Made by a program: the position numbers and the translations under genes. Under the pieces are notes generated by a model. That model worked only from the letters and a program-made list of their open reading frames with translations, was not told the DNA's origin and made no database searches. A stretch of 64,000 bases of DNA. Source: Candidatus Magasanikiibacteriota bacterium (GTDB taxonomy: Bacteria > Patescibacteriota > Patescibacteriia > Magasanikbacterales > UBA922). Below, one piece after another: positions 5,289-41,075 of this stretch. The stretch spans positions 326,612 through 390,611 of the forward strand of contig JBAYVA010000001.1 in the NCBI GenBank assembly GCA_041674805.1. Direction: 5' to 3'. The stretch's first letter is position 1, and each line of letters starts with the position of its first letter.

Positions 5289-5969
5289 TTATAATCTATA
5301 TTTACCGTTGTCTTCGTCAGAAATGATTCTACCATCATGAATAGTGACGACACGACGCTTAAGTTGATTTACGACTTCCCTATTGTGAGTAACTAACAAA
5401 ATAGTAGTACCAAATTCATTTATTTTTTTCAAAATATCAATAATTTCTTGAGTATTTATAGAATCAAGATTTCCTGTTGGTTCATCAGCTAATAATATTT
5501 TTGGTCTATGTACAAGAGAACGTGCCATAGCCACACGCTGTTGTTCACCACCAGATAATTGATGAGGATATCTGTCATGTTTATGAAATAAACCTACAAT
5601 ATCTAATACTCTTGGTACAACCTGTTTGATACGGGCGACTTTTTCACCAGCAACTTCTAAAGCAAAAGCAACATTTTCAGCTACAGTCTTCTTTGGTAAA
5701 AGTTTGAAATCTTGAAAAATAACACCTATTTGACGACGCAAAAGTGGAATATCCGCATTAGATATTTTGGTGATATCCCATCCACCAACTTCGATAAAAC
5801 CAGAAGTTGGTCTTTCTTCTGCAATTAATAATTTGACCATGGTAGTTTTTCCTGTACCACTTTGTCCAACAATAGAAACAAACTCTCCAGCTTCAACATG
5901 AAGATCTACACCATTTAGTCCAATACTATCAGCAGAATATTTTTTTGTTACACTTTTTAAAGTAATCAT
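5289..5969 (-). CDS. ftsE: cell division ATP-binding protein FtsE
   Basis: ABC ATPase motifs: Walker [10 protein letters not shown], signature [15 protein letters not shown], Walker [13 protein letters not shown]. It lies immediately upstream of ftsX. Confidence 0.85.
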
Positions 5970-6029
5970 ATGTAAAATATTATAACATAAAAAAAAATTT
6001 TACGCTATAAATTTTTTTGATTAAAATTG

Positions 6030-29975: not shown

Positions 29976-30776
29976 ATGCTTCAATTCTTCACAACTCTCC
30001 TCCAAGCCGTTCTCCTCCAACTAACCGGTTTATTCGGTATCTTTTTTATCATTGGTTTCTTCCAATCAATCATTCAACAAAAAACACTAGAGAATTATCA
30101 GCGCAGTCTTGGTTGGAAAGGAATACTCTGGACCGCCTGGATGGGTACTCCAATTCATGAGATGGGACATTATTTTTTTGCCAAAGTATTTCATCATCGA
30201 GTGGACAAAGTAAGCATTTTTGCGCCAAATGAAGAATCTGGCAATCTTGGGCATGTTGACCACAGCTACAACACCAAAAGTATTTACCAAAGACTTGGCA
30301 ATTTTTTTATCGGCGCCGCGCCCATGATCTTTGGGTCAATCGTGCTTGTCATTTTTCTCTATTTCTTCGTACCAAATGCCAAAGAAATCTTCAATCCCCT
30401 TTTTGCTAGTTTCAACAATCCTCTAGAATTTCTAAAAGCAATTTATGAAAGTCTAAAAAATCTCTTTGCAATAGACAATATCAACAAATGGAACTTCTGG
30501 CTATTCTTCTATCTATCTCTTGCTGTAGCCTCTCACATGGCGCCAAGCAAGCCGGACAGACGTGGGATGTGGAGTGGATTCTTCTGGATTGTGTTACTGA
30601 TGATTATAGTCAACATCATCACTCTCCTACTTGGCGTGGACATCACTGTTTATATTTTGAATCTTAGTCAATTTCTTGGATTATTTATCGCCATATTTGT
30701 CTATGGTCTTTTACTTTCATTTTTACATTATTTGATTTCTATTTTATTGTTGGTTTTGTTTAGGAAGAGGTTTTAA
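29976..30776 (+). CDS. hypothetical membrane protein with HExxH motif (putative membrane zinc metalloprotease)
   Basis: 266 aa with about 6 TM helices. IHEMGHYFFAKVFHH is followed by conserved acidic residues. Confidence 0.45.
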   Translation: MLQFFTTLLQAVLLQLTGLFGIFFIIGFFQSIIQQKTLENYQRSLGWKGILWTAWMGTPIHEMGHYFFAKVFHHRVDKVSIFAPNEESGNLGHVDHSYNTKSIYQRLGNFFIGAAPMIFGSIVLVIFLYFFVPNAKEIFNPLFASFNNPLEFLKAIYESLKNLFAIDNINKWNFWLFFYLSLAVASHMAPSKPDRRGMWSGFFWIVLLMIIVNIITLLLGVDITVYILNLSQFLGLFIAIFVYGLLLSFLHYLISILLLVLFRKRF

Positions 30777-30793
30777 AGATTTTGGAGAAAATA

Positions 30794-30825
30794 AAAAACA
30801 GACGATGGGTCTGTTTTTTTGTGTT
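30794..30825. terminator. bidirectional terminator (HExxH gene / hsdR convergent)
   Basis: aacagac-gatgg-gtctgtt stem followed by TTTTTT. Confidence 0.6.
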
Positions 30826-30831
30826 TATATT

Positions 30832-33144
30832 TTATTTAGCAATTTTCGCGTAAAGATTTTTTTGGAAAGTGAAAAACATTTTACGAATTTGATCCACATT
30901 GCCCAAATGTTTTTCAGCATCAGCCAAAGCATGATATTTGAGATTAAGTAAAACTGGCAATTGATCTTCACCAAGTTCTTCCACACCTTTTTCAGTATAT
31001 TTATCCAAAATAAAATCTATAAAGTCTTTTTGCTTATCATCAAGTTTTTCCAAAATTTTGTCTTTTGTTTTAGATACTCTTTCCTCACGAGAAACTTTTG
31101 GATTGAGAAAAGAAATATAATTGAGGACATCAAACAAATCACTATTTTCAGCGTCAACGATTTTTTGCAAAGTTTCCAGCTCTACTGGACCAAAGCCAAG
31201 TTCAGCAATACTATCAAGAAAAGCTTTTCTAGTCGTAGGATTTGACCAAATTTTTCGCAGTTCTTCTTCACTTTTGAAAAAGTCTGGCATTTTTTCAAAC
31301 ATATTGTTCATAAATTCTTCGACAGAAATTGGCTTGCCATCAGCACTCCAAAAAGAAGTAGAAATCATATGTTGAATTTCTCTTTCTTTACCATCACGAA
31401 GCTTTATTTTCAATTTTGGTTTTGGTTCTTGTCGTGGTTCTGGTTCAGTAATTATTTTAGCAATTTCTTTATCTTTTGGTTCTTTTATTTTTTTGTCTAT
31501 AGTCACTTCAATTGGTTCACCATCCCATTCTGGATCAGAAAAATGTTTGTAAGCATCGACAAAATCATAAATAGTAAAATATTCTTTGCCATCAAAAAGT
31601 CTGGTACCGCGTCCGACAATTTGTTTGAATTCAATCATCGAATTGACTGGACGCATCAGGACAATATTGCGGACATTGCGCGCGTCGACGCCGGTAGAAA
31701 GTTTTTGTGATGTAGTAAGAATTGTTGGAATAGTCTTTTCATTGTCTTGAAACTCACGCAAAAATTGTTCACCATGAGCACCGTCATTGGCAGTGACACG
31801 CACACAATAATTTGGGTCTTTACTATCTTTCATTTGGTTTATCAAATCACGAACAGCCAAAGCATGATCTTGATTGGCACAAAAAATAATTGTTTTTTCT
31901 TGTTTGTTTATTTCATCCAAAACAATTCTCACTCTTTTGGCTTCACGTTCTTTGATGTGTATTATTCTATTGAAATCTGGTTCTTCATAAATACGACCTT
32001 CTTCTATATCACCTTCAATAATCTGATCGTCAGATGTATAAACATAAGTATCTAAAGTAGTTTGTACACGTTTTACTTTGAAAGGAGTAAGAAAACCATC
32101 GTTGACACCTTCTTTGAGAGAATACGTATAAACTGGTTTACCAAAATAATCATAAGTATCAGCATTGTCTTTTCTTTTTGGTGTAGCGGTAAGACCAAGT
32201 TGCACAGCAGGTGAAAAATAATTCAAAATTTCACGCCAAGTACTTTCGTCATTTGCTCCGCCACGATGACACTCATCAATAATAATAAAATCAAAAAAGT
32301 CTTTAGGATATTCGCCAAAATATGGTGCGCCATTTGGACCACTCATGAAAGTCTGAAAAATAGTAAAAAATATACTACCACTTTTTGGCACGCCGCCTTT
32401 TTTACGAATATCTAGTGGGTTGATACGTACGAGAGCATTTTCTTCAAAAGCTGAAAAAGAGTTGAAAGCTTGATCTGCCAAAATATTTCTATCAGCCAAA
32501 AACAAAATGCGAGGACGACGTTTACCATTTCTTTCTAGATTCCAACGACTTTGAAACAATTTCCAAGCTATTTGAAAAGAAATAAAAGTCTTACCAGTAC
32601 CTGTTGCCAAAGTAAGAAGTATTCTGTTTTTTTCTTCAGCCACAGCAGACAAAGCATTGTTGACTGCAATTTCTTGGTAATATCTAGGAGTTTTGCCACT
32701 ACCAGCATCTTCAAACGGTACAGCATCAAATTTTTCTTTCCAAGTATTTTCTGCACCAAAAGTCTTGTGCCAAAGTTCTTCAGGTGTCGGAAAATGCAAA
32801 ACAGTTTTTTCTTCACCAGTTTCTAGCGACATTTCATAAATTTCACGACCATTGCTAGCGTAAGTATAATTGATTTGTAATTTGTGAGCATAAGCTTTGG
32901 CTTGGGCAACACCTTCACCAACGGCAATCTCCAAAGACTTCGCTTCTACGACTGCCAATTTACGATTTTTGTATACCAAAATATAGTCGGCTATTTCCGC
33001 TTTATTATTAAACAAACCAACACTACCAACACGATCATTAGTAATGCGGAATTCACGCAAGATTTTTGAATTTTCTAATACTCCCCAGCCAGCCTCCTTG
33101 AGCTTTGGGTCGATGTACTCAGCCCGTGTTTCGGCTTCATTCAT
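30832..33144 (-). CDS. hsdR: type I restriction enzyme R subunit HsdR
   Basis: HsdR N-terminal EAETRAEYIDPKLKEAGW; helicase motifs I LATGTGKT and II IIIDECHRG; ATP-dependent translocase domain. The track start at 33210 is probably too early; MNEAETR at 33144 is more likely. Confidence 0.8.
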   Translation of the reverse strand: MNEAETRAEYIDPKLKEAGWGVLENSKILREFRITNDRVGSVGLFNNKAEIADYILVYKNRKLAVVEAKSLEIAVGEGVAQAKAYAHKLQINYTYASNGREIYEMSLETGEEKTVLHFPTPEELWHKTFGAENTWKEKFDAVPFEDAGSGKTPRYYQEIAVNNALSAVAEEKNRILLTLATGTGKTFISFQIAWKLFQSRWNLERNGKRRPRILFLADRNILADQAFNSFSAFEENALVRINPLDIRKKGGVPKSGSIFFTIFQTFMSGPNGAPYFGEYPKDFFDFIIIDECHRGGANDESTWREILNYFSPAVQLGLTATPKRKDNADTYDYFGKPVYTYSLKEGVNDGFLTPFKVKRVQTTLDTYVYTSDDQIIEGDIEEGRIYEEPDFNRIIHIKEREAKRVRIVLDEINKQEKTIIFCANQDHALAVRDLINQMKDSKDPNYCVRVTANDGAHGEQFLREFQDNEKTIPTILTTSQKLSTGVDARNVRNIVLMRPVNSMIEFKQIVGRGTRLFDGKEYFTIYDFVDAYKHFSDPEWDGEPIEVTIDKKIKEPKDKEIAKIITEPEPRQEPKPKLKIKLRDGKEREIQHMISTSFWSADGKPISVEEFMNNMFEKMPDFFKSEEELRKIWSNPTTRKAFLDSIAELGFGPVELETLQKIVDAENSDLFDVLNYISFLNPKVSREERVSKTKDKILEKLDDKQKDFIDFILDKYTEKGVEELGEDQLPVLLNLKYHALADAEKHLGNVDQIRKMFFTFQKNLYAKIAK

Positions 33145-33152
33145 AAATAAAA

Positions 33153-33338
33153 TTATTTTCCTCCGTATCTTTTTTCTGCTTCTCCTTCTTTTAATTCTTT
33201 GCCAGACCATCTGCCAAAACGTGCCCCACAGTCTTTACAATCAATTTCACTGACACCATCATAACGTTCAGGACTGTCATAAGAGTACTCTACATAAATA
33301 ATATTTTTACTACCACATTTTTTACATTTTTTGTCCAT
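33153..33338 (-). CDS. small zinc-ribbon protein
   Basis: 61 aa with CKKCGS…CKDCGA (CxxC-x29-CxxC), wedged between the Fic gene and hsdR and overlapping the hsdR start. Confidence 0.4.
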   Translation of the reverse strand: MDKKCKKCGSKNIIYVEYSYDSPERYDGVSEIDCKDCGARFGRWSGKELKEGEAEKRYGGK

Positions 33339-33342
33339 ATGG

Positions 33343-34536
33343 TTAATTTTTATTATTTAAAGATGCTGGAATAAAACTATTTTTTTCAAGTATATGTATA
33401 GCCCCTCGCAATAAATAATTATTGGCAAATCCTAAAGTATATACTCTTCCTTTGGGATTGATAGAAATAAGCATTTTTTTGTCTTTAAGCCTTTTTAGAA
33501 TTCTAGAACGCTGTACAGAAGATTCTTCTCCAATTATTTTTTCTAAATCTGAAGATTTGATAATCATATCTTTACTTTTAACCAAGTATGCAAGTATTTC
33601 ATGTTCACGTTTTGTAATATGTTCATTATCCAAAGCAAAAGACAACATAGGTAACAAAATATTATTTGTCATATATGAAAGGTCTAACAATTTATCAATT
33701 TTTTCTATTTCTTCACGCAAACCTTCCAAAACATAAGAACACCACTGCAAAGTTTTTTCCTCTTCTCCTGTATCTGCCAAAGATAACATTTGATAATATT
33801 TATCACGGTCCATGCAAAAGACAGCTGTTGGATTCAAAATCCTACCATTTTTTACTTGAAAACGTTGTTTTATCAAAAGTGCATAAGTAAACATTCTCAC
33901 AAGACGACCATTGCCATTGTCAAAAGGATGAATCCAAGCCATACGATGATGTGACAAAGCAACAACCAAAAGATGATATTGAGAATCCAGAGGTTGGTTT
34001 ATGAATTTTATAAATTCCTCAAAATAATCTGGAACTTTCATAAAATCAGGAGGAACATGTTCTGCTTTACCAATAGAAACATTTACTGGTCTTAATTGAC
34101 CTGGGTATCTTGATCCCTCACCATTTGGTGAAGGTGTGAGACCTTCTACCAATATCTTGTGAATTTCAGAAATCAAAGCTCTATCTATTTTTGTTTTATT
34201 ATTTACATTATTTTCTATAAATTCAATAGCTCTTTCAATATTAGAGATCTCTCTGTCTTTTTCGGATTTACTATTTTTTGCTTTATTTTCAATAATCTTT
34301 TCTACATATTCAGCCAAAGTAGTTCTATTTCCTTCAATACGGGCAGAACCTATACTTTCTAAAATCTGAAAAATATTCTTTAATTGAAAGAATATATAAG
34401 GAGGAACTGGACCGCCAAGTTGTTTTACACGCAATTTTTCTAATTCAATAATAGTATTGGCCAGTTTGCTATTCCATTTTGGCTCATAAAGCTTAAAAGG
34501 AATATCTTTGAATTTTGGCTTATTTTCAGAAGTCAT
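33343..34536 (-). CDS. Fic/DOC family protein (AMPylase-like) with C-terminal winged-helix
   Basis: Canonical Fic motif HPFDNGNGRLVRMF with Fic_N-like N-terminus. It is embedded in the hsd operon. Confidence 0.8.
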   Translation of the reverse strand: MTSENKPKFKDIPFKLYEPKWNSKLANTIIELEKLRVKQLGGPVPPYIFFQLKNIFQILESIGSARIEGNRTTLAEYVEKIIENKAKNSKSEKDREISNIERAIEFIENNVNNKTKIDRALISEIHKILVEGLTPSPNGEGSRYPGQLRPVNVSIGKAEHVPPDFMKVPDYFEEFIKFINQPLDSQYHLLVVALSHHRMAWIHPFDNGNGRLVRMFTYALLIKQRFQVKNGRILNPTAVFCMDRDKYYQMLSLADTGEEEKTLQWCSYVLEGLREEIEKIDKLLDLSYMTNNILLPMLSFALDNEHITKREHEILAYLVKSKDMIIKSSDLEKIIGEESSVQRSRILKRLKDKKMLISINPKGRVYTLGFANNYLLRGAIHILEKNSFIPASLNNKN

Positions 34537-34645
34537 ATAGACTATTTAACATATATAGCTATATATTAGCTTATATTAGCTATTTTGTCAAGTGGATAGA
34601 TTATTGTCATTTAACATTTATCTTTTTAGACATTTAACATCTTTT

Positions 34646-35860
34646 TTACAACTCCCCTGCAAAGGCCTTTTTCAAAACAGATTTCTTGAGTTCTTCGAGA
34701 CTAGCCAATTTCTTCATATATATTTCCTCTAGTTTCTTAGTTTCAGCTGAAAGTGCGTCGAGCTTGGCGACGATGGATTTTTGTTCGGTGAGAGATTTTG
34801 GATAATTTAAAATAATTTGTTTTAAAGCACCACCATTAAATTGAGGTTGAGCTGAACCTGCAGAAAGTTGATTGACTTGATCCCAATAGATTTTAGATTT
34901 TGAAAAATGCCAATATAATTTACTAAAAATTTCTTTTTTAAATTTCATTCTAATAAGATATGATGCAAAAACTGAGGGTTCATCATTTTCAAAAAGCAAA
35001 ACATTTCCAGCAGAAGCTCCTGTTCTCGCCATTAACAAATCATTATTATTTAAAAGATATTTTTCAGCCTCTTTAAAAGAATCAACATACATCTTATTTT
35101 CTTTTGTAAGTAAACCATTTTCATCAGTATCTGTAATTCTTACAAATCGGTACTTTCCTTTATTTTTAGCTTTGGTAGTATAACCATATTCTACATCACA
35201 AATATCTCCTAAACTTTTTTCTTCCCACTTTTGACCTTCGACTTTTGACTTTTGACTTGTGAAAACACTATTCAAATAACTCTCAAAGACCTCCTTACTA
35301 TTTTTCAAATTCTTTTCAGTATTTGCTTTGGCTGTTTCAATGCCAGCGAAGACTTCGTCGAGTATTTTTACGATGTGGTGTTGGGTGGGGAGAGGAGGGA
35401 GAGGGATTTCAAAATTTTTTATTTGTTCTGTACTCAAATTTGGTTGGGCTGAGCCCATTGATATTTTTAAATTTTCTTCAATTTTAGTTGATAAAAAATA
35501 ATATAAATAATCCTTCACTAAATCTTTTTTTGGTTTAAATTTTCCTACACGCTGATTCAAATAAAATATTTCATCAGTATCACAAACAGCTAACTTTCCA
35601 GTTGTTGCGCCAGACATTGCAATTACCAGATCACCTTTTAAAACTTGATATTTATCAAAATTTTCTTTATAACTTTTTTTGTCAAAAAATACAAGTCTAT
35701 TATAAGAAATTCCATCATTTTGAATATTCGAAATTCTTAAAACAGGAAAACCATTCTCCTTAAATAATTTACTCTTAAAAGCAAATCCATTTTGAAAATC
35801 ACAAACTTCACTAAGTTTTTTTGTTTGCCAATTATTTTTTGTCATAGTAAAACTTTCCAT
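34646..35860 (-). CDS. hsdS: type I restriction-modification specificity subunit HsdS
   Basis: Two target-recognition domains separated and followed by conserved coiled-coil spacers (…PLPPLPTQHHIVKILDEVF… and …QKSIVAKLDALSAETKKLEEIY…). Confidence 0.8.
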   Translation of the reverse strand: MESFTMTKNNWQTKKLSEVCDFQNGFAFKSKLFKENGFPVLRISNIQNDGISYNRLVFFDKKSYKENFDKYQVLKGDLVIAMSGATTGKLAVCDTDEIFYLNQRVGKFKPKKDLVKDYLYYFLSTKIEENLKISMGSAQPNLSTEQIKNFEIPLPPLPTQHHIVKILDEVFAGIETAKANTEKNLKNSKEVFESYLNSVFTSQKSKVEGQKWEEKSLGDICDVEYGYTTKAKNKGKYRFVRITDTDENGLLTKENKMYVDSFKEAEKYLLNNNDLLMARTGASAGNVLLFENDEPSVFASYLIRMKFKKEIFSKLYWHFSKSKIYWDQVNQLSAGSAQPQFNGGALKQIILNYPKSLTEQKSIVAKLDALSAETKKLEEIYMKKLASLEELKKSVLKKAFAGEL

Positions 35861-36452
35861 TTTCTATTCTATTAGGTAAATTATTGAATATCTCTAATAC
35901 AAAATCATGGTAGTCTTCAATAATTTTTATTAAGTCAGATATTAAAAGATATCTATTATTTATACATATACTTTTATAATCTTCGCTTACATCCAAAAAT
36001 AAATCTTTTTTAAAAGTATTATAAAAAATATCTTCATTTATATGCTCTACTCTATTACGTATTTTAGAGACATTATATTTTTTTAGTCTATTTATAGTTT
36101 TTTTATCTATATATTTTAATAGATTTATTTTTCTTTTATCATCATTCTTACCATTTATTATAATATCAAAAATTTTTATAAATCTATTTATAGCATAAAG
36201 GCAATCTTCTAAATTATTTATAATATTTATTCTATAAATTAATTTGTCACCTGTTTTTATTTCTTCTTCTAAAGATTCTTTTACTTCTTCATATTTAAAC
36301 CAAGATTTATCAACTAACCTAAAAAGTAATCTTATATACAATTTACTTTTTTCATCTAAAACTTTTTCAGATCCGACTAAAATAATAGGTAAAAACCTAC
36401 TAACTAAAGGAAAATCAATTTTAATGTTGGGAATTTTATTATTATTTTTCAT
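35832..36452 (-). CDS. hypothetical protein (partner of the RelA/SpoT-domain gene; very AT-rich)
   Basis: 206 aa, Lys/Asn/Ile-rich with no known motif. It overlaps the upstream RelA/SpoT gene by 11 nt and hsdS by 29 nt, so the genes are translationally coupled. Confidence 0.4.
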   Translation of the reverse strand: MKNNNKIPNIKIDFPLVSRFLPIILVGSEKVLDEKSKLYIRLLFRLVDKSWFKYEEVKESLEEEIKTGDKLIYRINIINNLEDCLYAINRFIKIFDIIINGKNDDKRKINLLKYIDKKTINRLKKYNVSKIRNRVEHINEDIFYNTFKKDLFLDVSEDYKSICINNRYLLISDLIKIIEDYHDFVLEIFNNLPNRIENGKFYYDKK

Positions 36453-37482
36453 AATCTATTATTTTTTCTTCAATCACATCTAATAACTTTACAAATTCCT
36501 GTGTATCAAGAAAATAATTTGGATAAAGTTTTTCTAAATTATTTATATCATCTACAGAAACTAACACAATCTCCGTGTTTTTATCATTTAGATACTTTTT
36601 TTCTAACTTCGTATATTGATTATTTGCTTGATCTAATTTTGACTCAGAATATCGTTCAATATTTAATAATTTATTTTTAAAATTTAAAGAAATAAGGTAA
36701 TATTTACCTCTTTCTTTCTTTGTTTCTTTAGTAGAAATTTGAGTAGCAACCGAAAAACCTTCTATTTTATCTCTTAATTTTAATTCTTTAATTCTTTTAG
36801 ATATTTTTTGAAAAAATATTATATCAATATCATCATATTCCAACATGATAAATGCTTTGCTAATTTCTTTAAATAAATCAAGTAATTCTGCATCACCAAA
36901 ACTTTGTTTTAATGGTTGTCTTAAATATGTTCCTATAACTTCAACCGCTGTTGCCCAGGCATGATGTATTTTTGTTCTTAATTGAATTTCAATTCTGCAT
37001 TGACAATCTATAGAAACTTTTTTGTCATATTTATAAATTAAATGGATACTTCTATATCCACTTTCTTTTGGTTCTTTTATATAATCTTTTTCTTTTAAAA
37101 AAGTTGATTTGAAAGCTGCTTCTTGTTCTCCTTTTTTTAATAAATCTCTTAATTTATAGACCTCTTCTAAATTATCAACAACTGCACGTAAACCACCAAC
37201 ATCTTGCATTTGAGATAAAGACATGTTTTCTTGAATTTTTAACTTACTGATTATCGATGGTGCTCGCTTTAATCTCTGAGAAATTAAAACGTTACTATTT
37301 ATTGATTTAGATTTTCTTATTAAAGACATTCTAAAAACAATCAATGGATGGATATGAATTGATCTAAAGTTTTCTAAAATTTCAATAGCTAAATCTTGTG
37401 TTATTTTTTCATCAGATATACCAGCAAGAACATCCCCAGCTTTATCTATTTCCTTTTTTGAATATTTTAAAAATGACTTCAT
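36442..37482 (-). CDS. RelA/SpoT-domain nucleotide pyrophosphokinase (small alarmone synthetase-like; toxSAS/CapRel-like) with about 140-aa C-terminal extension
   Basis: Synthetase-fold motifs RLKRAPSIISKLK, DVGGLRAVV, YRSIHLIYKY and EIQLRTKIHHAWA. An unrecognisable C-terminal domain of about 140 aa follows. It overlaps hsdM by 4 nt. Confidence 0.7.
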   Translation of the reverse strand: MKSFLKYSKKEIDKAGDVLAGISDEKITQDLAIEILENFRSIHIHPLIVFRMSLIRKSKSINSNVLISQRLKRAPSIISKLKIQENMSLSQMQDVGGLRAVVDNLEEVYKLRDLLKKGEQEAAFKSTFLKEKDYIKEPKESGYRSIHLIYKYDKKVSIDCQCRIEIQLRTKIHHAWATAVEVIGTYLRQPLKQSFGDAELLDLFKEISKAFIMLEYDDIDIIFFQKISKRIKELKLRDKIEGFSVATQISTKETKKERGKYYLISLNFKNKLLNIERYSESKLDQANNQYTKLEKKYLNDKNTEIVLVSVDDINNLEKLYPNYFLDTQEFVKLLDVIEEKIIDYEK

Positions 37483-38930
37483 AATATATTCTTAATCTTC
37501 TCAAAAATTTCTCCACTATCCTCATCCAAACCCTTTATTTCCTCCAAAATCTCCTTCGGCTCCCTCAAAACATCCTCTTCTTTCTTGTTTGGGTTCTTCA
37601 CTGATAAATCAAAAGTAGCTTGATCAATATTTTTCACATCCACCATCCAAGAATTAGCACTACTTTCCTTCTTTTCTTGAAGCTTCACAAACTCAGCTAA
37701 GTCCACTTCACTCAATGGATTGCCCTTGCCAAGATTTCTATCTAGATTGAGCTGATAATACCAGATTTTTCTTGTTGGAGCGCCTTTTTCAAAAAATAAG
37801 ACAATAGTCTTCACACCCGCACCCTGAAAAGCACCACCTGGTAGATCTAGGATAGTATGCAGATTGCAAGTCGTAAGTAATTCTTTGCGTAGTGAGACAC
37901 TGGCATTGTCAGTGTTGCTCAAAAAAGTATTTTTGATGACAATCCCAGCTCGTCCACCAGCTCGGAGCATCTTGATAAAATGTTGTAAAAAGAGAAATGC
38001 TGTCTCGCCAGTTTTTATCGGGAAATTTTGTTGAATTTCTCTACCAATACCTGCTCCAAAAGGTGGATTTGCTAAGATAACATCTTTTCTGTCTTTTTCT
38101 TGTATGTCATTGATATTTTCTGCTAGTGTGTTCATGTGACGGATATTTGGTGCCTCAATACCATGTAAAATCATATTCATAATACCAATAATGTAGGCAA
38201 GAGATTTGATTTCTTTTCCGTAAAAAGTTTTGTTTTGCAAAGTTGTCATTTGACTTGAAGAAAGCTTGGCTTGATTTTCTGTCAAATATTTATATGCCTC
38301 CACCAAAAATCCAGCACTTCCACAAGCACCATCATAAATTGTTTCTCCAATTTTTGGATCTACTATTTTAACAATTGTTTTGATGAGTGGACGTGGTGTG
38401 TAATATTCACCACCATTTCGCCCAGCATTGCCCATATTTTTTATTTTTGACTCATAAAGATGTGAAAGTTCATGTTTTTCTTCATAAAGTCGAAAATGCA
38501 TTTTGTCTACCACGTTCAAAATTTCTCGTAATTTATAACCACTAGAAATTTTGTTTTTGAGTTCACTAAAAATTTCACCGATTTTGTATTCAATAGTATT
38601 TGGATCTTCAGCTTTAAATTTTTTTAAATAAGGAAAAAGTTTATTATTTACAAAGTCTCTCAAATCGTCACCATCAAGTGCTTTATTGTAATCCAATTTT
38701 TCATCACCATTTTTAGGACAAGCCCAAATATTCCAGAGATATTCTGGAGACAAAATATATTCATAATTTTTACCTGACAAAATGGCCGACTTTCTTTTGT
38801 CTTCTTCTAAATCATCAAGGTATTTCAAAAATAAAATCCAAGAAGTTTGTTCTACATAATCTAACTCCGTTCCGCAACCAGAGTCAGTATGAAGTATACT
38901 GTCAATGCTTTTGAATGATTGTTCAAACAT
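37479..38930 (-). CDS. hsdM: type I restriction-modification N6-adenine DNA methyltransferase HsdM
   Basis: HsdM N-terminal domain, SAM-binding motif DGACGSAGFL and catalytic motif LANPPFG. Confidence 0.85.
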   Translation of the reverse strand: MFEQSFKSIDSILHTDSGCGTELDYVEQTSWILFLKYLDDLEEDKRKSAILSGKNYEYILSPEYLWNIWACPKNGDEKLDYNKALDGDDLRDFVNNKLFPYLKKFKAEDPNTIEYKIGEIFSELKNKISSGYKLREILNVVDKMHFRLYEEKHELSHLYESKIKNMGNAGRNGGEYYTPRPLIKTIVKIVDPKIGETIYDGACGSAGFLVEAYKYLTENQAKLSSSQMTTLQNKTFYGKEIKSLAYIIGIMNMILHGIEAPNIRHMNTLAENINDIQEKDRKDVILANPPFGAGIGREIQQNFPIKTGETAFLFLQHFIKMLRAGGRAGIVIKNTFLSNTDNASVSLRKELLTTCNLHTILDLPGGAFQGAGVKTIVLFFEKGAPTRKIWYYQLNLDRNLGKGNPLSEVDLAEFVKLQEKKESSANSWMVDVKNIDQATFDLSVKNPNKKEEDVLREPKEILEEIKGLDEDSGEIFEKIKNIL

Positions 38931-38975
38931 AGTTTTTTATTGTTTTAGTGATACTATTTTAACAGAGATCAGAGG

Positions 38976-39062
38976 TTTTGTAAATCTAACAAAAAATCAC
39001 CTTTTAAGATGATTTTTGCTAAAAAAATTTCAGTTGGTGACAATTTGTCACCGACTCACCTA
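38976..39062. promoter_or_regulatory. conserved ~85-nt intergenic element, copy A (terminator hairpin + perfect 17-nt palindrome) upstream of hsdM
   Basis: Hairpin aaaatca-ccttttaaga-tgatttt with a T-run, plus palindrome ggtgacaatttgtcacc (39036-39052). It is near-identical to 41123-41207. Confidence 0.5.
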
Positions 39063-39992
39063 ATCCGCATTAGACAATCCCTCAAATACCTCAGTAGCAT
39101 AGACCACTTCGGCAAAATCCACCATCGTCGCATAATCTTTGACAGCAAACCAACCCTTCAGACCATCTTTCTTCTCAATCTGACACCATTTTTTGTTGTC
39201 ACAAGCAATGATTTTTACTATCTCATCTTTTTGAAGTGTTGTGATTATAGTACTGTCGTCTTGTGGTGATCTCTTAAGAGCTAAGGCTTGCAAAAGTGTT
39301 ACTTCTGTATCTCTCGCATAAAAATCTTTTGGAATATTTACCAATATATTATTTGTAGAAAGACTATAATCATCAGCAAAAAACCAAGTATCCAAAATAC
39401 TTCCACGAGTTTGGGTTGTCAATTTTCCTTTACCATCAAAAAGCATGTTTTCATAAATACCTTGTATAGTTCCTAATGACTTCAAATTTTTTCCGTCATA
39501 TTGATAAAAAGTTGTCGCATAATCACTACTAGGACCTTCGTCAGTGACAGCAATCTCTTTTAGCTTGTCACTTTTGTCTATATCCACAATACCAAAATAT
39601 CCCGCAGGCACATTTCCTGGTGTGGTAGTCCCCATATCGTCAATATGTAATATTGCGACATAACTATAATTTATTTGTTTGAATTCAATACTAATGTTTT
39701 CTTTTTTGCCATCACCATTTAGATCTTCTGCCTTTTCACGATATTGATTAGATTCCAAAGGTTTTGATTCCAAATAATTATTGTAAGCATCTAGATCTTG
39801 TGGAAATTGTTCTTGTTTTTCAGAAAACATAACATCTTGATTTTGTTCTTTTTCCAAATTCAAAACATCTTTTGAAAAGAAAAATTTGTTCATTATCAAA
39901 AAAAATAACACCAAAAAAATGATACCACCTCCCAAATATATATTAATTTTTTTATTACGAGACATACAAATGATTAGAATAAAACATAACAA
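39060..39992 (-). CDS. hypothetical membrane-anchored protein with C-terminal bacterial SH3-like domain
   Basis: N-terminal TM helix. The C-terminus …LQKDEIVKIIACDNKKWCQIEKKDGLKGWFAVKDY resembles SH3b. Confidence 0.45.
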   Translation of the reverse strand: MLCFILIICMSRNKKINIYLGGGIIFLVLFFLIMNKFFFSKDVLNLEKEQNQDVMFSEKQEQFPQDLDAYNNYLESKPLESNQYREKAEDLNGDGKKENISIEFKQINYSYVAILHIDDMGTTTPGNVPAGYFGIVDIDKSDKLKEIAVTDEGPSSDYATTFYQYDGKNLKSLGTIQGIYENMLFDGKGKLTTQTRGSILDTWFFADDYSLSTNNILVNIPKDFYARDTEVTLLQALALKRSPQDDSTIITTLQKDEIVKIIACDNKKWCQIEKKDGLKGWFAVKDYATMVDFAEVVYATEVFEGLSNAD

Positions 39993-40085: not shown

Positions 40086-41075
40086 CTATTTCTTCATATT
40101 GAGCAAAGTCGTAACCAAACTTGTCATTTGATCCTTTTTGCTTGGATGACTCTCCGCAATAAGCAAAGTAAGAGCTGTCAACGCACTTGGATTGATATTT
40201 ACTCTTCCTTTTATCTTAGCTTTACGTAAAAACCAAACAAAAGCAAAAGCTCCACTACGCTTATTGCCGTCGGTAAAAGGATGATTTTTGACCATAAAAT
40301 ATAATAGATGAGATGCCTTTTCTTCAGCTGTCTTATACAAAGAATTACCACCAAAAGACTGCATCACATTACCAACAATACCTTCTACACTAGCCACATT
40401 TTTTTCTTGAGCAAATAACTCTGAGGCTTCACCTTTTTTGATAAGTTCTTGACGAAGTTTGGAGATAGCCTCTGTCAATTCTTGACTTGTCAATTTTACT
40501 GCTTTTCTACTGCTTCCAATCTTATTTAATTTGTCTTTGTCATAAGCGTCCAGTGCCACCCAAGTACTAGCAAATTCTTTTATTAAATCCAAAACCATTT
40601 TTGGATCAAGAGCTACATGTTCTGGCAATAAATTTTGGATACTATTTACAGTCTTCAAAAAAGAATTGTAATTTTTTACAATCTGTTTGCGATTGATAGT
40701 ATAACCTTTTGTTATATGTTCTTTTAAAATATTTGTTGCCCACTTACGAAAATTAGTTGCTGTTTTAGAATTTACTCTGTAGCCAACTGAAATTATAGCA
40801 TCTAAATTATAATATTCTATATTACGTCTAATCTGACGATTTCCTTCTAATTGAACTGTTGCATTTTTTGCAACAGTTGACTTTTTATCTAACTCTTTTT
40901 CTTTGTATATTTTACTCAAATGACGTGAAATAACAGATTTATCACGTTCAAAAACAGTAGCTATTTGATCTAAATTTGCCCAAATTGTATCATTTGAAAA
41001 ATCATTGCGTAATTCAATAGAACCATCTTTTGCTTGATAAATTACAACATCATTTTTTAATTTTTTGTTTTTCAT
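40086..41075 (-). CDS. RhuM-family / Doc-type Fic-fold protein
   Basis: N-terminus VVIYQAKDGSIELRNDFSNDTIWANLDQIATVFERDKSVISRHLSKIYKEKEL (RhuM-like) and C-terminal Doc-type motif HPFTDGNKRSGAFAFVWFL. Confidence 0.6.
   Translation of the reverse strand: MKNKKLKNDVVIYQAKDGSIELRNDFSNDTIWANLDQIATVFERDKSVISRHLSKIYKEKELDKKSTVAKNATVQLEGNRQIRRNIEYYNLDAIISVGYRVNSKTATNFRKWATNILKEHITKGYTINRKQIVKNYNSFLKTVNSIQNLLPEHVALDPKMVLDLIKEFASTWVALDAYDKDKLNKIGSSRKAVKLTSQELTEAISKLRQELIKKGEASELFAQEKNVASVEGIVGNVMQSFGGNSLYKTAEEKASHLLYFMVKNHPFTDGNKRSGAFAFVWFLRKAKIKGRVNINPSALTALTLLIAESHPSKKDQMTSLVTTLLNMKK

Follow-up and report, generated by a model that had tools for sequence, protein, structure and literature searches.

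Background

Fused toxic small alarmone synthetases (toxSAS) of the CapRel type need no separate antitoxin (Zhang 2022, PMC9712102). In CapRel-SJ46, the product of an enterobacterial prophage gene, the importance of R79, R116, Y155, V338, L339 and the pair Y352xxY355 has been shown by mutagenesis; R79 and R116 are the arginines that coordinate adenine, and YxxY is the autoinhibitory motif (Zhang 2022, PMC9712102). Another described toxin, PrrC, is a HEPN-type RNase whose gene lies between the hsd genes of the type Ic restriction-modification (RM) system EcoprrI, where it forms a second line of defence, and in RM operons that contain PrrC-like genes one often finds Fic/Doc or RhuM toxins as well (PMC3710099). 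Here we describe a stretch of 64,000 nucleotides (nt; contig JBAYVA010000001.1, hereafter "the window", meaning that whole stretch) from an uncultured member of Candidatus Magasanikbacteria, in which a type I RM operon carries two further genes between hsdM and hsdS. One encodes a RelA/SpoT-domain protein of 346 amino acids (aa) and the other a 206-aa protein for which we use the working name X206. We consider it likely that these are a CapRel and a member of a new small HEPN-like family, each independently embedded in the operon as a second-line toxin. A first-pass annotation of the same DNA had placed both open reading frames (ORFs) between hsdM and hsdS and inside a type I RM operon, and this location stands; both lie on the minus strand, and hsdM, hsdS and hsdR are all recognized by PADLOC.

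The RelA/SpoT-domain protein is a fused CapRel

Pfam places a RelA_SpoT domain at residues 69-179 of the 346-aa protein (E = 2.2e-19), and the four small alarmone synthetase motifs quoted in the first-pass annotation are all present in the translation (R70-L-K-R-A-P-S-I-I-S-K80, D94-VGGLR99, G-Y143-RSIH147 and E165-IQLRT170). The best phmmer match in the Protein Data Bank (PDB) is CapRel-SJ46 (7ZTB/9ERV, E = 2.2e-36), with residues 2-334 of the query aligned to residues 10-366 of the chain; RelQ/RelP come next, reach about 1e-10 and are confined to residues 67-180. The protein also matches PADLOC PDC-S33 (1.4e-103, residues 3-337) and, over its full length, phrog_4773 of PHROGs (1.5e-83). In the alignment to SJ46, R70 and R99 correspond to R79 and R116, Y143 to the G-loop Y155, V306/L307 to the interface residues V338/L339, and Y320-P-N-Y323 to Y352-P-N-Y355. 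Across 38 CapRel homologues (39-78% identity) no variation is seen at R70, K72, R73, D94, R99, Y143, H147, E165, Q167, R169, V306, L307 and P321, and conservation is at least 90% at Y320, N322, Y323 and F324.

Structure prediction agrees. In the AlphaFold2 (AF2) model (pLDDT, the predicted value of the local distance difference test, 88.1) the C-terminal domain consists of strands 261-267, 272-278 and 303-309 and helix 280-296, followed by helices spanning 313-345, and this combination of a three-strand-plus-helix domain with helices is the pattern described for the pseudo-zinc-finger domain of CapRel. The top Foldseek matches are 7ztb and 9erv (E from 1e-21 to 8e-20, 1.1e-21 for 7ztb; 356-359 columns; TM-score about 0.66), and RelP and RelQ come next with about 1e-8 over some 200 columns, the Foldseek probability being 1.00 for 7ztb, RelP and RelQ alike. 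The high root-mean-square deviation of these superpositions would be expected if the model is in a closed and the crystal in an open state. The C-terminal 140 aa or so had been called unassignable in the first-pass annotation, but a region of about 150 aa aligns there with the regulatory/antitoxin region of CapRel-SJ46; its suggestion of a CapRel-type fused toxSAS is upheld by the full-length sequence and structure matches and by the conservation of catalytic and autoinhibitory residues.

The 346-aa protein is thus a full-length fused CapRel toxSAS with its own antitoxin domain, and since the C-terminal region is CapRel's own antitoxin/sensor region no separate antitoxin is needed. It shares with CapRel-SJ46 a single polypeptide of about 350 aa, the domain order and the conserved catalytic, interface and YxxY residues. 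It differs in being merely about 29-30% identical, in lying in a type I RM operon of Candidatus Magasanikbacteria rather than in an enterobacterial prophage, and in its interface, where alanines A77, A341 and A351 of SJ46 are replaced by S, S and L as read from the phmmer alignment.

One may also consider that the protein is a housekeeping small alarmone synthetase of the RelQ/RelP type that makes (p)ppGpp, because the RelA_SpoT domain and the catalytic motifs are common to both. This explanation is hardly tenable. The NCBIfam equivalog model for RelQ (GTPPhKinYjbM) scores 62.7 bits, far from its cutoff of 320, and RelQ/RelP align to the central residues alone whereas CapRel aligns over the full length. 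RelQ and RelP are single-domain proteins of about 200-230 aa, in contrast to the window protein with its additional 150-aa CapRel C-terminal region and YxxY. Embedding in an RM operon and abundance in prophages (CapRel relatives were found in 135 viral loci) also speak against a housekeeping role.

It follows from the PADLOC match that the first-pass term "undescribed" was too strong for the RelA/SpoT gene. The label PDC-S33 comes from a "guilt-by-embedding" study (bioRxiv 10.1101/2024.01.29.577857) and stands for a single-gene phage defence candidate; to be called a PDC, a gene must by definition lie within a BREX, DISARM or type I RM system. None of the papers that we searched contained text naming PDC-S33, but from the matches of the 346-aa protein to both we infer that PDC-S33 is CapRel. 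The gene is a member of a characterized family whose RM-embedded form is already catalogued, and by itself it adds little, the mechanism of fused CapRel being understood.

Conservation of the CapRel-X206 pairing

The end of CapRel and the start of X206 overlap, as had been observed in the first-pass annotation, which saw in the 206-aa ORF a possible antitoxin or effector partner; the overlap is 11 nt long. On that explanation CapRel and X206 would belong together as a two-gene system of their own, in which X206 serves as antitoxin, co-effector or sensor. The overlap, the probable co-transcription and the fact that these are the two most AT-rich ORFs of the window are all in its favour, and both bicistronic toxSAS-antitoxin pairs and toxSAS-activator pairs (PANGU) exist. 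A loose theme of "CapRel plus small HEPN" is also conceivable, with unrelated small ORFs of pattern R[ND]xxxH occupying the CapRel-hsdS slot of two other operons (L039 and L048).

The pairing was looked for from both sides. From the side of X206, 38 loci were collected, giving 21 other clusters at 90% identity, and a RelA/SpoT-like neighbour was present in none of the 21. From the side of CapRel, 91 loci (80 of them viral contigs, the other 11 taken from metagenomes or genomes with close orthologues) yielded no homologue when searched with the X206 profile, and a scan of viral contigs for X206 relatives found none either. A conserved adjacent partner co-occurring with the toxSAS, as in a bicistronic toxin-antitoxin (TA) or activator pair, was thus not found. 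Lack of conserved pairing had been named in the first-pass annotation itself as the observation that would count against the two-gene module, and on this result the module fails.

The close CapRel orthologues (70-78% identity) show how the present arrangement probably arose. They occur in eight contexts besides the window, and in four of these (L041/42, L044/45, L046 and L049) hsdS comes directly after hsdM-CapRel, with no gene between CapRel and hsdS; in L044/45 Fic and hsdR follow hsdS as they do in the window. In three others (L039/40, L047 and L048) different small ORFs fill the CapRel-hsdS slot, and in the remaining one (L043) the orthologue stands without any RM genes. The 4-nt overlap of hsdM and CapRel is kept wherever hsdM is intact (it is split in L044/45). 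In the relatives it is the start of hsdS that overlaps the stop of CapRel, ATGAAAACTAA, and in the window it is the start of X206, ATGAAAAATAA, over the same 11 nt. X206 therefore sits where hsdS formerly began, which points to insertion into a pre-existing CapRel-hsdS junction, and the overlap with CapRel would have been inherited from that junction. In addition, CapRel has its own antitoxin domain with YxxY intact, and elsewhere X206 stands behind OLD/GajA, Mrr-like or other genes in the same position. The two-gene explanation thus appears to be largely refuted by synteny and we judge it very improbable; X206 does not seem to be the partner of CapRel, nor the two a matched toxin-antitoxin pair. 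More generally, overlapping and compositionally alike neighbours need not form a toxin-antitoxin pair.

PANGU type I (Pag1A and Pag1B, bioRxiv 10.64898/2026.04.06.716658) is a bicistronic toxSAS-plus-partner system of the kind imagined in the first-pass annotation. However, Pag1B is a GRel toxSAS that makes (pp)pGpp and requires the nucleoid-protein activator Pag1A, whereas the toxSAS of the window is a self-inhibited CapRel; the PANGU partner is a nucleoid-associated protein, whereas X206 is neither nucleoid-associated nor a conserved partner. A model of the PANGU type was rejected on these grounds, the toxSAS subfamily being different and the partner not conserved. Another candidate pair, an X206 homologue in Nitrosococcus with a RelA/SpoT gene nearby, was also discarded: the latter encodes a long housekeeping enzyme 4.5 kb away, and the proximity is coincidental.

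The small ORFs in the CapRel-hsdS slot of L039 (4752-5345, 197 aa, RNGAAH) and L048 (3763-4197, 144 aa, RDAGTH) have no Pfam match and no sequence kinship to each other or to X206. Their motifs suggest that they may be further small HEPN-like proteins, which would fit what is already known of HEPN genes lying within RM operons. L039 also contains a 209-aa ORF (5350-5979) whose N-terminus is hsdS-like (MTWPTKKLGE) and is followed by unrelated sequence; it may be a recombination remnant at the hsdS 5' end.

Base composition and history of the two genes

Both genes had been described in the first-pass annotation as AT-shifted relative to the hsd genes, and the shift had been taken as a sign of a single horizontally inserted cassette. 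The shift itself is confirmed: among the 57 window ORFs of at least 100 aa (mean GC content 0.321, standard deviation 0.035), X206 is the lowest (0.187, z = -3.8) and CapRel the second lowest (0.245, z = -2.1), as compared with 0.342 for hsdM and 0.301 for hsdS. The single cassette is not, since CapRel has diverged in step with hsdM while X206 is an extra insertion at the CapRel-hsdS junction. When the window is compared with the operons of the close orthologues, identity is 70-78% for CapRel, 69-83% for hsdM and 68-75% for hsdR; having diverged in step with both, CapRel has long resided in this family of type I RM operons. L039 is an exception, since its hsdM has an identity of just 29%, so that CapRel must there have moved. 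Nor does AT bias mark CapRel as a recent arrival. Across CPR (candidate phyla radiation) lineages the orthologues (L041-L049) keep a GC content of 0.30-0.34 whatever that of hsdM (0.33-0.50), even beside an hsdM of 0.48-0.50, and the bias is therefore better seen as a standing property of CapRel.

X206 behaves differently. Its gene is AT-shifted relative to the neighbouring hsd genes in all five other RM-embedded loci compared, and copies at least 90% identical are found in differing neighbourhoods, so that it behaves like a mobile module consisting of one gene. A search for insertion scars or repeats on either side of CapRel and X206 gave just AT-rich chance matches. Taken together, the comparisons suggest that CapRel and X206 represent two separate acquisition events rather than one cassette.

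In several lineages of the CPR (Magasanikbacteria, Uhrbacteria, Moraniibacteria and Pacebacteria) the CapRel clade in question is carried stably by a single family of type I RM operons. Ultra-small episymbiotic bacteria thus maintain abortive-infection toxins within their RM operons.

X206 as a predicted HEPN-like RNase

X206 has 41 close homologues, 97 clusters of relatives at 50% identity and, by a profile search of 5.8 billion proteins, 137 clusters; a profile scan of genome contigs with a closer X206 alignment gave two loci. Members are solo proteins of about 200 aa and are spread over CPR bacteria, an archaeal genome of the Methanosarcinales and Nitrosococcus. All 137 members from the profile search lack a Pfam domain or a name, and they provide no bridge to annotated HEPN proteins.

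In an alignment of 57 sequences with a mean column identity of 28%, the sole invariant residues are E82, R132 and H137, and conservation is at least 90% at R45, L46, D48, K49, Y54, R90, E136 and I142; the core motif reads R-N-x-[IV]-E-H. The HEPN signature is Rx4-6H, in which the arginine is followed by N, D or H, together with an acidic residue upstream in helix 2; in the HEPN core an insert separates helix 2 from helix 3, and the motif lies on the distorted end of helix 3 (Anantharaman et al. 2013, PMC3710099). X206 has the motif, the polar residue after the arginine and the upstream acidic residue. Its AF2 model is a confident helical bundle (pLDDT 92.9), in which helices 34-67 and 70-100 are followed by an insert (101-128), a helix broken at H137 (129-136/138-144), a beta-hairpin and a last helix (171-190), so that at the level of secondary structure the four helices, the insert after the second of them and the distorted motif end are all in place. 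The best natural structural neighbours of X206 are HEPN proteins. HepT chains recur among its weak, non-significant Foldseek matches, and a few family members show weak matches to HEPN models of the ApeA type.

Several observations weigh against such a reading. The upstream acidic residue of X206 lies in E-x7-R and not in the typical Ex3[KR]. Searched against Pfam, NCBIfam, PADLOC, PHROGs and PDB, the window protein gave nothing, and no significant link to a HEPN family; the Foldseek search of PDB had no match below an E-value of 0.5. Structure prediction followed by Foldseek, the check proposed in the first-pass annotation, has in this way led from the 346-aa protein to CapRel (7ztb/9erv) but from the 206-aa protein to no significant match. 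A solo HEPN RNase without a conserved antitoxin, moreover, leaves the avoidance of self-toxicity to be explained. With regard to the independence of the two genes rather than to the fold, X206 overlaps its neighbours at both ends, which would imply co-translation with CapRel and with hsdS, and there may be a functional interaction specific to this locus. The family was also compared by hhalign with the 197-aa ORF of L039, the 144-aa ORF of L048 and the HEPN_LA2681 domain of L013; none of these comparisons was significant, and two of the three aligned the motif alone.

Since motif and architecture are those of HEPN proteins while statistical homology is not found, we go no further than to say that X206 is probably a small HEPN RNase; if so, it would most likely be a metal-independent enzyme using E82, R132 and H137. 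A different view is that X206 is a non-catalytic helical bundle, acting for example in regulation, as an adaptor or in anti-restriction/immunity, with R..EH in a structural or ligand-binding role. One would then not expect the only invariant residues, at such low overall identity, to be an E, an R and an H in the canonical R-N-xxx-H pattern. The nearest natural structural neighbours and the location in defence and TA islands also argue against this view, and the split copies of L036 and L037 are consistent with a gene that is costly to its host. A non-catalytic role is thus unlikely in our opinion.

Compared with described HEPN proteins, X206 has no significant sequence or profile match to the integron-cassette protein 3JRT, to HepT (7AE2, 5YEP) or to the HEPN domain of ApeA. 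It lacks the MNT antitoxin neighbour that is a feature of HepT-MntA (type VII TA), no such nucleotidyltransferase (MNT) being seen beside X206 in the annotated neighbourhoods, and it lacks the N-terminal beta-rich domain of ApeA. It is set apart from these solo or minimal HEPNs by an additional helix at the N-terminus and by a beta-hairpin that follows the motif helix and precedes the last one. X206 therefore appears to belong to an unannotated small family of the HEPN-in-RM type, apparently new, whose distinctive trait is a conserved coupling to hsdS. What makes the family of interest is its wide scatter, the clean E...R-N-xxx-H signature and the recurrent exact overlap with the hsdS start codon.

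Neighbourhoods of X206 and coupling to hsdS

Outside the window the neighbours of X206 are defence or mobile-element genes. They include pAgo, caspase and Ymh (L001), a SocA/Panacea TA pair (L002), methylase, helicase and GmrSD (L005-7), type IIG RM and radical SAM genes (L009) and, in further loci, a TPR-HEPN_LA2681 gene, PDC-S39 and an integrase, and the homologue in Nitrosococcus halophilus lies in an island rich in TA and transposase genes. The commonest arrangement is hsdM-[variable gene]-X206-hsdS, found in seven of 19 informative clusters and in the window; no hsd gene is nearby in the other 12. The variable gene encodes an OLD/GajA-like ATPase-nuclease (L008, L033), an Mrr-like protein (L035/36) or an unknown protein.

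The OLD/GajA-like ATPase-TOPRIM genes directly upstream of X206 lie at 1403-3139 in L008 and 1713-3404 in L033. The L008 gene shares 4 nt with X206, and the hsdM of that operon has 83% identity to that of the window, from which it follows that one operon family carries either OLD or CapRel in the same slot. In two loci (L036, 4697-5324; L037, 7995-8566) the X206 homologue is split into two fragments and is probably a pseudogene; that of L036 belongs to an operon, hsdR-hsdM-Mrr-like-X206-hsdS, which is intact in other respects.

In the window and in L008, L022, L023, L029 and L033 the ATG of hsdS lies inside the last codons of X206 (..TAY TAT GAY AAR AAA TAA, for Y-Y-D-K-K-stop). The resulting 14-nt overlap is identical, although the hsdM genes of these operons are mostly merely 24-38% identical. 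This overlap is the one feature that independent embedding of the two toxins does not fully explain. It may be that X206 and the 5' block of hsdS are inherited or recombined as a unit, or else there may be selection for co-translation with HsdS, implying a relationship like that of PrrC.

One may accordingly ask whether X206 is a minimal analogue of PrrC, that is, a latent RNase which the HsdM/HsdS complex restrains, or whose state it senses, and which is freed when an anti-restriction factor of the phage disables the RM enzyme: in the second case X206 would sense the state of HsdM/HsdS. X206 has in common with PrrC the place of its gene between hsd genes, and embedding in a type I RM operon, as in PrrC/RloC, is seen in the window and seven other X206 clusters; hsdS is immediately downstream in eight of 20 informative contexts, the window included. 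The overlap kept across such divergent operons, the recurrence of the hsdM-[variable gene]-X206-hsdS order and the precedent of PrrC itself (PMC3710099) point the same way, and a Fic companion is common to PrrC-like RM operons and the operon of the window. In contrast, most informative clusters of X206 have no hsd gene nearby, and near-identical copies are found inside and outside RM loci (L016 versus L014). Whereas PrrC has an N-terminal ABC-ATPase (NTPase) regulatory domain, X206 is a single domain of 206 aa with no P-loop or ATPase match, and no sequence similarity between X206 and PrrC was detectable. The conserved junction could also stem from the inheritance or recombination as a unit just mentioned. 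We therefore regard the PrrC-like explanation as rather unlikely, preferring two independently embedded toxins. Were X206 nevertheless an RNase under control of the RM complex, no smaller guard of the PrrC-like kind would be known, and the sensing of RM failure could be studied in it with ease.

An extension of that idea, which we think no better than doubtful, is that X206 founds a class of HsdS-coupled minimal HEPN RNases and that the hsdM-hsdS slot of CPR operons is a swap site for guards and effectors. Under this similarly tentative scheme CapRel, OLD/GajA and Mrr-like proteins would be interchangeable effectors, and X206, tied to HsdS in both translation and activity like a PrrC stripped of its extra domain, would fire when the RM complex is disabled.

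Proposed mode of action

Under the preferred reading, with CapRel and X206 as separate second-line toxins, the RM enzyme would be the first barrier. By homology, the toxSYNTH domain of CapRel would pyrophosphorylate the 3'-CCA ends of tRNA with ATP and so halt translation, the C-terminal domain keeping the toxin off by placing YPNY in the site for ATP. A structural protein of a phage that binds to this domain would release the block and so lead to abortive infection. X206, as a mobile single-gene module inserted exactly at the former CapRel/hsdS junction and translationally coupled to hsdS, would act separately as an RNase toxin; it may be silenced intrinsically, by its N-terminal helix or the hairpin, or restrained by the RM complex. 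With a SoFic-like Fic protein as a third effector, CapRel, X206 and Fic would constitute parallel abortive-infection back-ups upon restriction failure.

Organization of the operon and neighbouring genes

On the minus strand the gene order is hsdM - CapRel - X206 - hsdS - Fic - 61-aa Zn-ribbon ORF - hsdR (Table 1). The genes probably form one operon, transcribed from about 38984 to about 30793, this being the simplest view of a promoter-like site directly before hsdM and a lone terminator-like hairpin after hsdR, which is the sole minus-strand terminator match within 30500-39300. The hsdM and CapRel ORFs overlap by 4 nt. X206 and hsdS overlap by 29 nt if the longest hsdS ORF is taken, and by the conserved 14 nt if hsdS starts at the downstream ATG. 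The longest hsdR ORF likewise overlaps the 61-aa ORF, and the later start is likelier.

Table 1. Features of the type I RM operon, with positions in the window.
Feature	Position	Strand	Evidence and remarks
Sigma-70-like promoter, best match	38956..38984	-	TTTACA-17-TAAAAT + TG; 10/12 matches to the consensus; directly upstream of hsdM; probable operon promoter
hsdM, type I RM methyltransferase, 483 aa	37479..38930	-	PADLOC MTase_I 4.3e-157
Fused CapRel-type toxSAS, 346 aa	36442..37482	-	toxSYNTH N-terminal and autoinhibitory/sensor C-terminal region
toxSYNTH catalytic domain, about residues 1-190	36913..37482	-	Pfam RelA_SpoT; R70, R99, G-loop Y143, E165-Q-R169
YxxY autoinhibitory motif Y320-P-N-Y323	36514..36525	-	Translates as YPNY
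X206, predicted HEPN-like RNase of 206 aa, from a family of unannotated solo proteins	35832..36452	-	
Candidate HEPN Rx4H catalytic motif R132-N-R-V-E-H137	36042..36059	-	Translates as RNRVEH
hsdS, specificity subunit	34646..35860	-	PADLOC Specificity_I 1.7e-60; probable true start ATG 35845 (MTKNNWQTKK)
Fic-domain protein, SoFic-like, 397 aa, third embedded toxin candidate	33343..34536	-	Pfam Fic 4.5e-16; PADLOC SoFic 4.5e-45
61-aa Zn-ribbon ORF	33153..33338	-	Two CxxC pairs
hsdR, restriction subunit	30832..33210	-	PADLOC REase_I 1.1e-143; probable start 33144 (MNEAETRAEY)
Terminator-like hairpin past hsdR, probable operon end	30793..30819	-	11-bp stem and T run, readable on both strands

A search for RNA antitoxins or other non-coding RNAs with Rfam, together with a search for tandem repeats, gave no Rfam match and no meaningful repeat. 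The 61-aa ORF just upstream of hsdR has sub-threshold matches to Lar restriction-alleviation models (Pfam, 9.2e-5; TIGR03655, 0.0037). One gene upstream of the operon lies a gene for a RhuM and Fic/DOC fusion protein (40086-41075, minus strand; PADLOC PDC-S23, 1.3e-114), which is separated from hsdM by the gene for an SH3-domain protein (39060-39992). RhuM genes also flank the CapRel operons of L039/40 and L046, and a Fic gene occupies the hsdS-hsdR slot in the CapRel-bearing operons of L044/45, L047 and L049 as well.

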